Shown here piece by piece: positions 24,018 to 28,056 of a stretch of 39,366 bases of DNA; within the stretch, counting starts at the first letter, position 1; each line of letters begins with the position of its first letter. The DNA is from a virus, in the IMG/VR virus record IMGVR_UViG_3300045988_130974, positions 1-39,366 of that record. One strand, 5' to 3'. Made by a program: the position numbers and the translations under genes. The notes under the pieces were generated by a model. That model was not told the origin of the DNA. It was given only the letters and a program-made list of their open reading frames with translations, and searched no databases.

Positions 24018-25244
24018 TCAGAAATACCTTGAACGAATCGTCCGTGCTTGGTTGTCGCGGTGTTGGTTAAATACTGCATAGCGTAGGCTGTCCATCACGT
24101 GGTCGTTCTCTTTGACAGGCTCGCCGGTCTTGTCGTCCCAGACGTACTGATAAATTTCGTCCAGAAACTGGTCAACGCCTTCTTTGACAACATAGAACTT
24201 GCCTTGTTTCATATACTCGCTGACCTTTTCAATACCCGCCATTTTTGCTTTGTTAGCGTTACGGGCTTGAATACCAGCTTGTTGAAATTCGCTCACGTTG
24301 TCAGGCCGTGCCGAATCGCACCAAAAAAGGATATTCCGGCCGTACTTGGCTTGAATATCCTTCGCAATGTTTTTCCAATACTCGATGAATTTAAACTGTT
24401 TCGTGTGCTCTTCGATTAAATAGACGTTGCCTTGCTTATCATCGCCAAAAACAGTGATAACACCGGCATGGTCAAAACCCCAGTCGACACCGCAATAATA
24501 GCTTAAATCGTCCGGTAAGTCCTGCTTGTCTATCATCATCGTTCGCTTGTTAAAATCACGATAAACAACGCCATCACCACTGACCCATAAGCCTAAAATA
24601 TCACGATCGTAAAAAACCCCGCTCGGTTTAGACGCCTTCAAAGATTCGACATAATCGGCTGATAGCGTTGGGTTATCGTCAATCGTGAAATTAAAGTATA
24701 TCGTTCTCGCTTTGGGGTCGTCCTTATCAATATGATTAACCTTAAGCCAATGCTGCGGGTTATCTGGGTTTGTGTCGCAAATAATCTTGCTATTAGGTTT
24801 TGAACAACGGTTATTGATTTCTTCGAAAACTCGCTCATTTGCCAAGCTGGCCTCGTTTACGTAAGCGCCATATGAAGTAAAACCACGTGCACCGGCTAAC
24901 CCACGAATAGAATCTGTGTAGATTGGCGTAATATCAACGCCAAACAAATGAAAATGGTTATGACGGTCTGGTGGTAAATCAATACCAAACGTGTTTGAAA
25001 TACTCAAAATTACGTTGTTATAAATTGAACCGCTAGACGCACCGGCCAAGATATATTGCGGGTGTTTTTCGCCTTCTAATTCTGCTTGCTTGGCAACTCT
25101 ACGTAACTCAAGCAGGAACAAATAGTTATTAATGTATGTCTTACCGCTCCGAACCGCTCCAGATAGTATCATCATACGAAAATCTTCATTTAGATACGTA
25201 TGCAGAACCTTATTCTGCTTTTCCGTAAATAAATCAGTTAGCAT
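24018..25244 (-). CDS. terL: Terminase large subunit
   Basis: Walker A motif LSGAVRSGKTY and a C-terminal nuclease region. ATG at 25244 overlaps the terS end. Confidence 0.9.
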   Translation of the reverse strand: MLTDLFTEKQNKVLHTYLNEDFRMMILSGAVRSGKTYINNYLFLLELRRVAKQAELEGEKHPQYILAGASSGSIYNNVILSISNTFGIDLPPDRHNHFHLFGVDITPIYTDSIRGLAGARGFTSYGAYVNEASLANERVFEEINNRCSKPNSKIICDTNPDNPQHWLKVNHIDKDDPKARTIYFNFTIDDNPTLSADYVESLKASKPSGVFYDRDILGLWVSGDGVVYRDFNKRTMMIDKQDLPDDLSYYCGVDWGFDHAGVITVFGDDKQGNVYLIEEHTKQFKFIEYWKNIAKDIQAKYGRNILFWCDSARPDNVSEFQQAGIQARNANKAKMAGIEKVSEYMKQGKFYVVKEGVDQFLDEIYQYVWDDKTGEPVKENDHVMDSLRYAVFNQHRDNQARTIRSRYF

Positions 25245-25731
25245 TCTCTTCACTATCCTTGCGTTCGATTGTAGTAAGCATTTTATCAATCAGCACTTCG
25301 ACATCTGCGCCGTTTTCTTCAAGCGACTTTGCCCTTGCCTCCGCCACTCGTGCATCGGCATTAGCCTTACGAACCTTAGCCCGTGTAAGCTCAGGCGTAT
25401 CGTTATCAGACAGCATGCCGGCCATTTTTAAAATGGTAGTCGCTGATTGTAGCTGAACCATTTCTGATTTAGCTTCTAACAACTCTTTCAGCTTCTTAAG
25501 TGCCTTACTTTCGTAGTCATTTTTAACAACAAGTGATCGGTACTGTTTTTGCGCTGCCTTGAACAGCTCTTCGTTTTTCCAACTACTCAAAGTAGACCTG
25601 CTTCGGCCAACTGACTTAGCAATTTCTTCATCGGTCAACTCGTCTTCAAACAGCAACATAACCGCTTTTTGCCGACGCTTGTCCAACTTATAAAAAGGCC
25701 CGTCTTGTCCCGTTTTGTTTACTTTACTCAT
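25234..25731 (-). CDS. terS: Terminase small subunit (HTH-containing)
   Basis: LTDEEIAKSVGRSRSTLSSWK is the HTH, followed by a coiled-coil C-terminus. Directly upstream of, and overlapping, terL. Confidence 0.7.
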   Translation of the reverse strand: MSKVNKTGQDGPFYKLDKRRQKAVMLLFEDELTDEEIAKSVGRSRSTLSSWKNEELFKAAQKQYRSLVVKNDYESKALKKLKELLEAKSEMVQLQSATTILKMAGMLSDNDTPELTRAKVRKANADARVAEARAKSLEENGADVEVLIDKMLTTIERKDSEENAN

Positions 25732-26030: not shown

Positions 26031-26210
26031 TCACAACTTCATTTTCGGCGGTTTAACGCTATACCTGACCTTTTTATCAATCTTCTTCTTAACGGGCTCG
26101 TGTCGCTCATTCTCGGCCTTGTGCCGCTCTCTGCATATCCGGTCAGCATAAGCCAACATGATATACTCAGACCGGCTACTGACTAGCCCGTATTTCTTTG
26201 TGATAAACAT
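26031..26210 (-). CDS. Hypothetical basic protein (59 aa)
   Basis: ATG at 26210 after AGGAGAGCGAACGA. The longer ORF-track version to 26318 would read through a terminator hairpin. Confidence 0.45.
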   Translation of the reverse strand: MFITKKYGLVSSRSEYIMLAYADRICRERHKAENERHEPVKKKIDKKVRYSVKPPKMKL

Positions 26211-26238
26211 TCGTTCGCTCTCCTGACCAAATAAAAAA

Positions 26239-26256
26239 GACGGGCCGAAACCCGTC
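26239..26256 (-). terminator. Intrinsic terminator downstream of tRNA-Tyr
   Basis: The minus strand reads GACGGGtttcggCCCGTC followed by TTTTTTATTT. Confidence 0.65.
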
Positions 26257-26363
26257 AATTGAAACTGATGCATAAGCAGCACGCCAACGACCACTGTCAA
26301 CGTACACGCTAAAACCATTTATTAAATCAACGAAAAATAGTTTTATTTTTTGCCCGTAGGCAA

Positions 26364-26444
26364 TGGAAATGGTAGGAATCGAACCTACGAACCCGAAGGA
26401 ACGGTTTTACAGACCGTCGCGTTTTCCATCTTCGCTACATTTCC
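26364..26444 (-). tRNA. tRNA-Tyr (anticodon GTA), class II with short extra arm, no encoded CCA
   Basis: Hand-folded cloverleaf. Acceptor GGAAATG/CATTTCC, 3-bp D stem GCG/CGC with GG in the loop. Anticodon stem ACGGT/ACCGT with loop CTGTAAA. Extra arm CC-TTCG-GG. T arm GTAGG-TTCGATT-CCTAC. Discriminator A. Confidence 0.9.
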
Positions 26445-27021
26445 AAAACCCGCCGGCGTTGATAAGGAACACCATGCCGGAAGGATTATATGCAAAGGAT
26501 TATGCAACCCGTTTCAAATTATGCCATCCCTGGCAAAGGATAGGTAGTGGACTCGCACCACTTTTTGCATGCTGCTAACGCCGGTAGATCGTTCAAGTAA
26601 CGTTAGCAACAAGCCCACCTGGGACCTTCCAACTATCTGTCGTGTCTTCCAGATAGTAACACCGTAAGACGGAATCGCACCGCCTCGCAAATGATCAGTA
26701 TTGGAGCGATCAAGTTTAAAGGTTTACGGAAGTAATCATTTGCCATCTTATACGGTATGAAAAAGCAAGTTTCCTTGCTTTAGTAGGTAAAAAGTCGCTT
26801 TGCAATCGCGAATATTTTTTATTGCGCATGCAAGCCTAGAAATCAAAGTATGACTAAATTAAACAATCGTCTTGAAAGGATTTCATTTCCAACAAATTTG
26901 AAAGACCATCGGAACAGAAAGGTTATATGCCATCTCTGGCACAATACCAATATACCGCATTTTCAAGGTTTATTTAATCCCCTCTTAGTACCCCAATTGG
27001 TACTACCTTATATACCACTTT
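26445..27021 (-). ncRNA. Candidate large structured non-coding RNA (ROOL/GOLLD-like context)
   Basis: 577 nt with no credible ORF on the transcribed strand and many perfect hairpins: ACTATCTG/CAGATAGT, TGCTAACG/CGTTAGCA, TAGTACC/GGTACTA, CCGGC/GCCGG. Two T-arm look-alikes are present (GGCGG-TGCGATT-CCGTC and AGTGG-TGCGAGT-CCACT). Abuts tRNA-Tyr on the same strand. Confidence 0.4.
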
Positions 27022-27513
27022 TTAAGCAGTGGCTTTTTTCATGATTGTAAACGTTGGGAATAGATCTTCAACTTGGTACTTTGCAATGGCTGTTTCGATC
27101 GTTTCTGAAAACTCATAGCATGCGAATTTCTCTGACTTGTGCCAGCTCTTGTTGCTACTGATATGCAGCAGCTCTTTGACGTCTTCTACTTGTTCCCGTT
27201 TTACGAACCGGTTTTTCAGAATAACACGGCTTTCTTCGCTCAGACAATTGTTGATTGCGTCATACACCGCATTTAACGCACGTGAATACTCCGTGTGAGC
27301 GATAAAGGCGTCTTCGTTGTGATTTCCACCACTACCACCAAAACCGCCGTCAGCAGACAATGACGGGCTTTTAATGTCGCCTGACCCTGCCTTGCGTAGA
27401 ATATGACTAAACGTCCGCTTGTTGAATCCATCATCAAAAAAGAAATCGCGCACCGCTTGACGGGTTGCCTGCTCATCGATTTCGTCAAATAATTCTGCTT
27501 GTTTAACTGCCAT
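27022..27513 (-). CDS. ArpU-family late transcriptional regulator
   Basis: The pattern ELFDEIDEQATRQAVRDFF...EYSRALNAVYDAINNCLSEESRVILKNRF matches ArpU/RinA-like regulators. It is the last early gene before the packaging region. Confidence 0.7.
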   Translation of the reverse strand: MAVKQAELFDEIDEQATRQAVRDFFFDDGFNKRTFSHILRKAGSGDIKSPSLSADGGFGGSGGNHNEDAFIAHTEYSRALNAVYDAINNCLSEESRVILKNRFVKREQVEDVKELLHISSNKSWHKSEKFACYEFSETIETAIAKYQVEDLFPTFTIMKKATA

Positions 27514-27516
27514 GCC

Positions 27517-28056
27517 CTAACCCCTTTCGACTACATAGCGACCCAGATATGGCTTTTCTTGCCGGCGTTTCAAATAGTTGTGTAGCGCATGAGCTTTAAA
27601 GCCTAACGCCCGTTCTGCTGCTTGAATGCTGATATAGTGCATGACTTTACCTAGCTTTAAATCTTTAATGGTGATTTCCACGCCATGCCTTTTAAATGAC
27701 GGCAACTTTTGGTGCATAACCTTTAGCGCGCCGTTTCTTCGAACATAGTAAAGATAGCCGCTTCTAGAAATTGGCACGTTCTCGATAACCCAATGCCAGC
27801 TTTTACCCTGCTCTAGTGCTTCCTTCTGTTTTGCGTAAATTTCAGCTTCAATGGCAAAGTTGTCAACGCTTTGTCCGGGCTTGTGATAGCTTGCCCGCAT
27901 TTCCTTAATCATCTCTTGCAGCTTTTTGTACTTCGCTGTTGCCGTTTCGCCGTCTGGGCAACCATCATCGTCCAGAAAGTCATACTCCAGATATAAATCG
28001 GGGTACGTTGTTCGATACCAGTTCTCCAACTGGCAAAACTCTTCCATGTCAATCAT
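27517..28056 (-). CDS. Hypothetical protein with NUMOD1/I-TevI-like C-terminal DNA-binding segment
   Basis: The C-terminal VEITIKDLKLGKVMHYISIQAAERALGFKAHALHNYLKRR resembles homing-endonuclease DNA-binding modules. No nuclease motif was seen. Confidence 0.45.
   Translation of the reverse strand: MIDMEEFCQLENWYRTTYPDLYLEYDFLDDDGCPDGETATAKYKKLQEMIKEMRASYHKPGQSVDNFAIEAEIYAKQKEALEQGKSWHWVIENVPISRSGYLYYVRRNGALKVMHQKLPSFKRHGVEITIKDLKLGKVMHYISIQAAERALGFKAHALHNYLKRRQEKPYLGRYVVERG

Follow-up and report, generated by a model that had tools for sequence, protein, structure and literature searches.

The window analysed here comprises positions 1 to 39,366 (nucleotides, nt) of IMG/VR virus record IMGVR_UViG_3300045988_130974. 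Its genome, of a temperate siphovirus type, is read on the minus strand, with genes for early functions and replication at about 39-28 kilobases (kb). Downstream, an ArpU-like late transcriptional activator gene was followed by a structured RNA element, a transfer RNA (tRNA) gene, tRNA-Tyr(GTA), two small open reading frames (ORFs) and the terminase genes for TerS and TerL (Table 1). The phage is a Limosilactobacillus mucosae-type temperate phage, and its RNA locus lies exactly at the early/late boundary. The locus comprised approximately 790 nt, from about 27019 to 26229, with 26446-27021 as its main part; 576 nt separated the activator stop codon from tRNA-Tyr, and the element up to the tRNA measured 576-582 nt. 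The most fitting description is that of a new phage RNA family, a composite of tRNA mimics. The locus is conserved, strand-specific, modular and structured as RNA, contains two non-decoding tRNA mimics (TL1 and TL2) and a tRNA slot, and is absent from Rfam. All coordinates refer to the whole window, with the parts read on the minus strand.

A first-pass annotation made from the sequence alone had marked the interval between the activator gene and the tRNA as an ORF-free, hairpin-dense candidate for a large ornate RNA of the ROOL/GOLLD type. Every stem, the direct repeat and the hairpins with a 5-base-pair (bp) stem and a 7-nt loop that it named were recovered in their places. The 8-bp stem ACTATCTG/CAGATAGT forms the ACAC-loop hairpin between TL1 and TL2, and the GCTAACG/CGTTAGC arm lies inside TL2. 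AGTACC/GGTACT pairs in the 5' domain, TGCCA and TGGCA enclose GNRA loops in two hairpins, and CCGGC/GCCGG is the stem of the clamp helix before the tRNA. The two hairpins with 7-nt loops are the T-arms of the mimics. No plausible ORF had been expected either, and only mechanical ORFs were present, of 58 amino acids (aa) on the minus and 64 aa on the plus strand. No ORF was conserved among 25 relatives, with the 58-aa ORF intact in six of them and the 64-aa ORF interrupted by a frameshift or stop in about half. The annotation was supported on three points: the sense (minus) strand of this Lactobacillales prophage has a large non-coding RNA region that is structured and conserved, this region lies directly 5' of an adjoining tRNA-Tyr(GTA), and it contains two acceptor-plus-T-arm tRNA mimics.

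Table 1. Features of the RNA locus and of the genes around it, in 5' to 3' order of the minus strand.
Feature	Coordinates	Strand	Sequence or structure	Evidence or remark
179-aa ORF	27517-28056	(-)		upstream of activator gene
ArpU-like late transcriptional activator gene	27022..27513	(-)		directly 5' of RNA element
Alternative sigma-70-like site	27071-27044	(-)	TTGAAG-16-TACAAT	inside activator gene
Promoter-like extended -10 motif	27009..27017	(-)	TGGTATATA (within AAGTGGTATATAAGG)	5' boundary of element
5' multi-helix domain	26782..27019	(-)	~240 nt	window-like group and L034; z = -4.7 vs -3.4 on plus strand
Hairpin in 5' domain	27004-26987	(-)	AGUACC/GGUACU
GNRA hairpin in 5' domain	26941-26928	(-)	UGCCA-GAGA-UGGCA
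GAAA-tetraloop hairpin and U-tract	26763..26780	(-)	AAGCAAG-GAAA-CUUGCUU UUUUC
TL1, tRNA-like module 1	26659..26758	(-)	acceptor-like AUACCGU/ACGGUGU, long arm, T-arm	RNAalifold, covariation
TL1 long arm	26744-26687	(-)
TL1 T-arm	26684-26668	(-)	GGCGG-UGCGAUU-CCGUC
ACAC-loop hairpin	26632..26657	(-)	ACUAUCUG-GAAGACACGA-CAGAUAGU	conserved ACAC loop motif
TL2, tRNA-like module 2 (cloverleaf mimic)	26537..26631	(-)	7-bp acceptor-like stem with bulged A; mini D-like hairpin CCC-AGGN-GGG; long variable 'anticodon-position' arm; A-rich linker; T-arm	covariance model R1, covariation
TL2 T-arm	26562-26546	(-)	AGUGG-UGCGAGU-CCACU
GNRA hairpin in TL2 3' trailer	26522..26535	(-)	UGCCA-GGGA-UGGCA
Direct repeat	26506-26495 and 26494-26481	(-)	TGCATAATCCTT / TGCATATAATCCTT	3' end overlapped by clamp
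Clamp helix	26449..26484	(-)	CCUUCCGGC...GCCGGCGGG	helix 27; ends 3 nt before tRNA
Conserved motif enclosed by clamp	26466-26458	(-)	CUUAUCAAC
tRNA-Tyr(GTA)	26363..26445	(-)	no encoded CCA	ARAGORN; Rfam tRNA, 63.5 bits
Post-tRNA hairpin	26363-26350	(-)	UUGCCUACGGGCAA
3' tail	26257..26362	(-)		nearly invariant in window-like group
CUGCUUAUGCAUCA module	26257-26330	(-)	preceded by TTGACA	conserved segment of 3' tail
Intrinsic terminator	26229..26256	(-)	GACGGG-UUUC-GGCCCGUC and U-tract	19 nt before ATG (26210) of first late ORF
TerS	25234-25731	(-)		PHROG 7344
TerL	24018-25289	(-)		Terminase_6

The region folded more stably than expected and did so preferentially on the minus strand. Its minimum free energy was -173.4 kcal/mol (z = -4.0), which 0 of 100 shuffles matched, compared to -142.4 kcal/mol (z = -2.3) on the plus strand. 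The asymmetry was present in the 5' half (z = -4.7 on the minus versus -3.4 on the plus strand) and in the 3' half (z = -2.2 versus -0.4). G-U pairs made up 20 of the 169 modelled pairs in the window sequence. The consensus fold branched into multistem junctions within the 5' domain as well as in TL1 and TL2, and showed no correspondence to the ROOL model.

About 60 related loci from prophages and metagenomes carried a conserved copy of the element, and TL1, the ACAC-loop hairpin, TL2 and the slot were common to three architectural groups (window-like, B and C). Across 17 IMG/VR contigs, the activator was 95-99% identical at the amino-acid level whereas the intergenic region was just 77-95% identical. 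A Logan contig, L034, carried an activator of 82% identity and a much more diverged copy of the element. Covariation over the whole element was evaluated with the curated structure on 25 distinct full-length homologues. Standard pairs accounted for 96.7% of pair cells, compared to 35-46% when the partners were slid by 1-3 columns. Both sides had changed in 25 pairs, with 5.4 in shuffles, and 0 of 500 shuffles reached the observed value. The strongest covariation was found in the ACAC-loop hairpin, the T-stems of TL1 and TL2 and the TL2 acceptor. Six of the eight pairs in the ACAC-loop hairpin (helices 19-20) showed changes on both sides; its stem alternated between ACUACUCG/CGAGUAGU, ACCGUACG/CGGUACGG, GCGCUG/CAGCGC, GUGCUG/CAGCAC and CUCGC/GCGAG, while the loop kept ACAC. 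The TL1 T-stem occurred in seven complementary versions across loci, including GGCGG/CCGCC, GACGG/CCGUC, GGUGG/CCACC, GCCGG/CCGGC and GCAGG/CCUGC. The TL1 acceptor read ACCGUA/UACGGU in the window and ACCGCA/UGCGGU in a sister group, and wobble-only substitutions in the TL1 arm were consistent with a minus-strand RNA.

TL2 was analysed separately on 19 diverse sequences. Here 92.5% of cells were paired, compared to 82.4% in shuffles and 37-50% when slid, and double changes occurred at 12 pairs, which 0 of 500 shuffles reached. The T-stem alternated between AGUGG/CCACU, AAGGG/CCCUU and AACGG/CCGUU, and the long arm was wholly replaced between groups with pairing kept. The covariance model R1, built for TL2, matched the window in a single copy (95.3 bits, E=7e-23) and found exactly one copy in each of 62 loci with 79-96 bits. 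The T-loop UGCGAGU and the D-like CCCAGGNGGG were invariant in all 62 copies. Next to TL2, the loop of the trailer hairpin varied solely within GNRA (GGGA, GAAA, GAGA and GCGA), and its stem was GCCGG/CCGGC in L034. The clamp stem CCGGC/GCCGG was replaced by UUGGC/GCUAA in group B with the loop motif kept, and the terminator stem was compensated in L034 (GGUGGGG...CCCGCC). An alternative proposed by RNAalifold, in which GGUGGGCU pairs with AGUCCACU and replaces the D-like hairpin and T-arm of TL2, was rejected because variation at the N of AGGN (U, C, A) is uncompensated and the T-stem covaries. R1 gave only a 9-bit local T-arm match on TL1, so the two modules are not close paralogues.

A site acting at the DNA level with incidental repeats (a packaging signal of the pac/cos kind, an origin or an array of protein-binding sites, for example) would suit the position directly upstream of terS/terL, the direct repeat and a palindromic GTGATA-N-TATCAC that groups B and C carry at the 5' edge. 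It is very improbable, given that folding is strand-asymmetric, that the 20 G-U pairs are A-C mismatches on the other strand and that covariation keeps pairing, not sequence; the direct repeat was not kept in L034.

The likeness of TL1 and TL2 to tRNA lies in the acceptor and T-arm. In both modules, no nucleotides separate the acceptor-like stem from the 5-bp T stem on which it stacks, and the 7-nt loops UGCGAUU (TL1) and UGCGAGU (TL2) place U at position 1 and A at position 5, as in a T-loop. The T-arm is directly followed by the acceptor 3' strand in TL1 and by ACCUAUCC in TL2, both supported by covariation. In groups B and C, T-arms with canonical UUCGAYU loops were present. Neither module had a standard D-arm or an anticodon arm whose loop measures 7 nt. 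TL2 showed a 3-bp/4-nt D-like hairpin and a variable arm of 8-14 bp with differing loop size. TL1 had no D-arm, and its acceptor-to-T-arm insert ranged from 14 to about 130 nt across groups, with about 66 nt in the window, 14-24 nt in most group C loci and the longest inserts in group B.

None of TL1, TL2 and the slot tRNA encodes CCA. After the acceptor 3' strand, each is followed by one nucleotide, UU and a hairpin. This N-UU-hairpin arrangement was counted in 68 of 69 TL2 copies, 65 of 66 slot tRNAs and 51 of 66 TL1 copies, with 13 further TL1 copies showing UA; the GNRA hairpin of the TL2 trailer also occurred after the slot tRNA in some sister loci. In lactic acid bacteria, RNase Z cuts CCA-less pre-tRNAs right after the discriminator (PMC8549757). 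Judged by their sequence, the trailers match the context of CCA-less tRNA precursors and present the features of an RNase Z substrate.

The slot itself was compared in the window and in L001-L017, L034 and L037-L078. It held tRNA-Tyr(GTA), tRNA-Ser(GCT), tRNA-Asn(GTT) or tRNA derivatives whose anticodon loop measured 6 nt or whose anticodon arm was truncated or absent. Slot tRNAs with the 6-nt loop were present in many loci and labelled 'tRNA-???' by ARAGORN, and slot RNAs with a reduced anticodon arm kept intact acceptor, D and T arms (L012, 5070-5140; slot of L043). Many relatives have a decoding-incompetent tRNA derivative in the slot. The slot tRNA was also exchanged between close relatives. 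Such degenerate slot tRNAs, together with the canonical T-loops of groups B and C, could be taken to indicate a decaying tRNA gene array, with the odd slot RNAs as well as TL1 and TL2 being functionless pseudogenes of a former cluster. This is improbable, as compensatory changes maintain the stems in lineages more than 25% different, the TL2 copies share a non-canonical T-loop and CCCAGGNGGG without exception, and all three groups retain the architecture and trailer grammar. Covariation and strand asymmetry speak against both pseudogene decay and a DNA-level site.

Known RNA families were searched with Rfam 15. At gathering thresholds, the whole window gave tRNA only, and ROOL, GOLLD, raiA, HEARO and tmRNA were not found. 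At E<=10 with lax filters, tRNA-Tyr was the sole match in 26200-27200. The divergent homologue L034 likewise gave tRNA only at E<=10, without RF03087 (ROOL) or RF01998 (GOLLD), and ten loci of both sister architectures matched only tRNA at gathering score. L039 of group C had no ROOL, GOLLD, raiA or HEARO match at E<=10; a 17.8-bit local T-arm match to the tmRNA model was far under the gathering score of 47. The GOLLD covariance model, which covers the conserved 3' domain, was unmatched in the window, L034, the sister loci and L039. For raiA, HEARO, OLE and tmRNA, no Rfam match was obtained in the window, and ARAGORN detected no tmRNA either. Rfam cis-regulatory families gave no match in the window region, L034 or L039, and an equivalent element was not described in the literature searched. 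By these searches, the element belongs to no catalogued RNA family. An identity as ROOL, GOLLD, raiA, HEARO or tmRNA was rejected, with no Rfam match at any threshold tried.

Of the ROOL/GOLLD-type proposal in the first-pass annotation, the size of about 580 nt and the prophage/tRNA context stood, and family membership did not. ROOL and GOLLD are large structured prophage and phage RNAs of Lactobacillales and other bacteria, often located by a tRNA; ROOL averages 581 nt and lies in prophages near tRNA genes (PMC5737381), and GOLLD sometimes carries tRNAs within (PMC12286853). A divergent member of either family agrees with the locus in size and genomic context only, and is scarcely credible with RF03087 and RF01998 unmatched at E<=10 (window region, L034 and L039) and at gathering score (window and ten sister loci). 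Unlike ROOL and GOLLD, the element shows no covariance-model similarity to them, is modular with tRNA-like units, pre-tRNA trailers and modules gained or lost between relatives, and has a narrow distribution in L. mucosae prophages and gut metagenomes.

An analogue of these RNAs rather than a homologue deserves more weight. In this case, an RNA of about 580 nt would stay uncut after RNase P frees the tRNA and would act intact as a folded or oligomeric particle. Its length of 576-582 nt and its prophage context directly before a tRNA match ROOL and GOLLD, and GOLLD can hold tRNAs in its linker (PMC5737381; PMC12286853). Three GNRA tetraloops and the T-loops, which are typical tertiary-contact motifs, are conserved, as are the spacer motifs. 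The architecture of the relatives is hard to square with one fold. The 5' multi-helix domain was restricted to the window-like group and L034. Group B had the promoter-like motif immediately before a long TL1 and tRNA-Asn in the slot. Group C had a TL1 resembling a minihelix, carried tRNA-Ser or a derivative without an anticodon, and possessed an additional T-arm module as well as another tRNA-like unit. Sister groups thus lack the 5' domain or have modules added or removed. Equally difficult are the mosaic elements L046, L037, L050 and L074, recombinants which join 5' and 3' parts from different groups at a junction inside or beside TL2. Furthermore, every module has its own pre-tRNA-like trailer. 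An intact particle is unlikely and ranks second among the rivals. For recombination, TL2 appears to provide a block of homology common to the groups.

In all groups, the element followed an activator homologue and preceded TerS/TerL, either directly or with extra genes on either side. In L061, extra genes lay between activator and element, about 1330 to 610 nt upstream of TL2, and unrelated genes were also present downstream of the element; the first inserted gene resembles a HicA-type toxin (by eye only). In L050, unrelated genes were located between element and terS, 460-1975 nt downstream of TL2. Because unrelated genes flank it in these two loci, the element behaves as a self-contained cassette.

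Candidate signals for transcription were located at both ends. The motif TGGTATATA occurred once in the window. A related motif, (A/G)TG(A/G)TA(T/G)NNA, was present once at the element's 5' edge in 11 of 15 loci checked, mostly as GTATCGTGATA(T/G)(A/G)AA in the sister groups; it was unmatched in L016, L061 and L065, and L034 had none close to the edge. This motif or the sigma-70-like site inside the activator gene may act as promoter. At the 5' boundary of group C elements (L039, L043, L044, L048, L050, L100 and L106), an inverted repeat was seen 350-480 nt upstream of TL2, for example GTGATA-GAAA-TATCAC or the shorter TGATAT-GA-ATATCA, overlapping an extended -10-like sequence. It may be a binding site of the ArpU-like activator. 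At the 3' end, the intrinsic terminator of the window had equivalents closing the element in groups B and C. No promoter room was left between terminator and first packaging-region ORF, a layout that L034 and groups B and C share. With 19 nt between the terminator and this ORF, the late genes would need read-through from upstream.

An alternative reading makes the element a cis-acting late-operon leader, the 5' untranslated region of the packaging/structural operon, whose structure would control terminator read-through by processive antitermination or attenuation at 26256-26229 and with which the tRNA would be co-expressed. The sole conserved promoter-like motif between activator gene and terS coincides with the element's 5' edge, a strong terminator always closes the element, with 19 nt from its U-tract to the first late ORF, and the position between activator and terminase is constant. 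The layout recalls lambda PR'-6S RNA-tR', where a late regulator gene, promoter, short non-coding transcript, terminator and late genes follow each other in the same order. The lambda 6S RNA differs from the element in being short and in lacking a conserved structure or tRNA-like character, and ArpU-type proteins are not known to act as antiterminators. We know of no antitermination RNA (put, nut, EAR) with tRNA-like modules and pre-tRNA trailers, which counts against a leader, as do the missing Rfam cis-regulatory match and the unrelated flanking genes in L050 and L061 that mark a self-contained cassette. A cis-regulatory leader is the strongest rival because the terminator sits directly before the late genes, and it is nonetheless a minority possibility.

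The preferred interpretation, held at a probability of roughly 0.5, is that the locus encodes an uncatalogued phage RNA whose late precursor would be cut by host tRNA enzymes and whose mimics would act by their tRNA shape. Its parts differ in strength. A real structured RNA of a new family is highly probable, tRNA-type processing of the precursor is about an even bet and action by tRNA mimicry is tentative. Transcription would start, probably, at the promoter-like motif at the end of the activator gene and would end at the strong intrinsic terminator that immediately precedes the packaging genes. The transcript would carry, in order, the 5' domain, TL1, the ACAC-loop hairpin, TL2, the GNRA hairpin, the clamp helix and the genuine tRNA. 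TL1 and TL2 copy the acceptor/T-arm 'top half' of a tRNA, TL2 with an added D-like hairpin, and the free-to-vary arm of each takes the anticodon-arm position. Host RNase P and RNase Z would cut the precursor at all three units, releasing tRNA-Tyr along with two mimic RNAs of tRNA size and spacer RNAs capped by hairpins, which would accumulate late in infection. The mimics may titrate or divert tRNA-binding host factors, or be mere processing punctuation; they would not decode. We infer promoter use, RNase P/RNase Z processing and action through tRNA shape from sequence features.

Several observations weigh against this interpretation. The constraint on the spacers, seen in the ACAC loop, the GNRA loops and CUUAUCAAC, equally fits a single large RNA or a cis-acting leader, and the closeness of the strong terminator to the first late ORF hints at late-gene control. 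TL1 and TL2 were unmatched by the tRNA model RF00005 (E<=10, 26200-27200) and by ARAGORN. The fold of the 5' domain is supported mainly by predicted energy and retention in L034, because the domain is almost invariant; helices 1-13 were kept in the 25 homologues, mostly unchanged and with few double changes. Its outermost helices would be absent if transcription begins after the motif at 27017-27009. The taxonomy is also narrow, with one species of the Genome Taxonomy Database (GTDB) and gut metagenomes, and conservation is partly recent common ancestry.

Several known systems resemble the locus in part. In phage T4, 'species 1 and 2' (RNA C and D) are stable phage RNAs of unknown function that are co-transcribed with tRNAs, partly tRNA-like and matured by the tRNA-processing machinery. 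They differ from the element in host, sequences and genome position, here a late-promoter leader. In MALAT1/mascRNA and the TMER of murid herpesvirus 68, a non-decoding tRNA-like fold is directly followed by hairpins, and RNase P and RNase Z are recruited to set the ends of neighbouring RNA. These are eukaryotic/viral RNA polymerase II/III systems, unlike the element, for which such processing is predicted. Phage tRNAs can evade tRNA-targeting defence, as tRNA-Lys of T5 does against PARIS (PMC11455837). The element shares with them tRNA-shaped RNAs from a phage and swaps of the slot (Tyr, Ser, Asn) as would be expected in an arms race; TL1, TL2 and many slot RNAs cannot decode, in contrast, and only a putative decoy role is possible for them. 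By analogy, tRNA-targeting defence is a plausible frame for a decoy function. A late cassette of non-decoding mimics (TL1, TL2 and an often anticodon-disabled slot tRNA), matured by RNase P/RNase Z and serving as decoy or sponge for host factors, is speculative, with odds well below even. Its targets would recognise the tRNA acceptor, T-arm or elbow, for instance tRNA-modifying or tRNA-cleaving abortive-infection toxins and tRNA-processing or translation factors. If true, the cassette would extend the arms race between phage tRNAs and tRNA-targeting immunity from replacement tRNAs to pure mimics.

The element adds an RNA family that current annotation misses entirely. It shares its context with GOLLD and ROOL, but its architecture is readable, with tRNA-shaped modules, precursor-type trailers and a swappable tRNA slot. 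This makes its function experimentally approachable through RNase P/RNase Z processing, binding partners of the mimics and late-gene read-through. Cultured carriers are L. mucosae DSM 13345 and strain A1, the latter with a circular 39-kb phage replicon. This replicon, NZ_CP058957.1 (L111, 'plasmid unnamed3'), is a 39346-bp circular, near-identical phage genome with the same element at 94% identity. Its RefSeq annotation leaves about 980 nt over the element region without a coding sequence. The phage in the A1 culture may be an episome or an excised circle.

Relatives were retrieved by several routes. A pattern derived from TL2 returned 41 metagenome loci and further IMG/VR contigs. Among GTDB species representatives, L. 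mucosae DSM 13345 was the single species matched. In GenBank phages, blastn with the window region found the tRNA alone and, with the group C element, nothing. Activator homologues, used as a route to distant loci, formed three clusters among 5.8 billion proteins, of which one yielded L034, the most useful divergent homologue, and another a contig that was too short. In IMG/VR, searches with a 5'-domain pattern and with looser T-loop patterns recovered the phage groups already seen and no new architecture. Two IMG/VR source genomes each held two different prophages with separate versions of the element, one from the window-like group and one from group C: 2630968579_000003/_000004 (L014/L029 with L080) and 2654588121_000001/_000002 (L011/L020 with L100).

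Some smaller features of the locus were noted. The GAAA-tetraloop hairpin between the 5' domain and TL1 was considered as an internal terminator; this is doubtful, the U-tract not being conserved in relatives, where the stem reads GCGG-GAAA-CCGC or GGGC-UUGC-GCCC instead. A loop-loop pairing between the ACAC loop and GGUGUU of the clamp is possible in the window-like group and unsupported in groups B and C (inspection only). The CUGCUUAUGCAUCA module has been shuffled between element ends, because it forms the 3' tail in the window-like group and part of the 5' region in group C (seen in L039 and L043). The activator matched PHROG 248 'transcriptional activator' with E=2.4e-24 and NCBIfam TIGR01637 phage_arpU with 41 bits, slightly below the cut-off of 43.1; the Pfam search gave no match. 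The 179-aa ORF upstream of it showed weak similarity to PHROG 3855, a helix-turn-helix (HTH) DNA-binding protein (E=0.007), and to the group I intron endonuclease family TIGR01453 (E=0.004, far under the cut-off), and may encode a homing-endonuclease-like or HTH protein.

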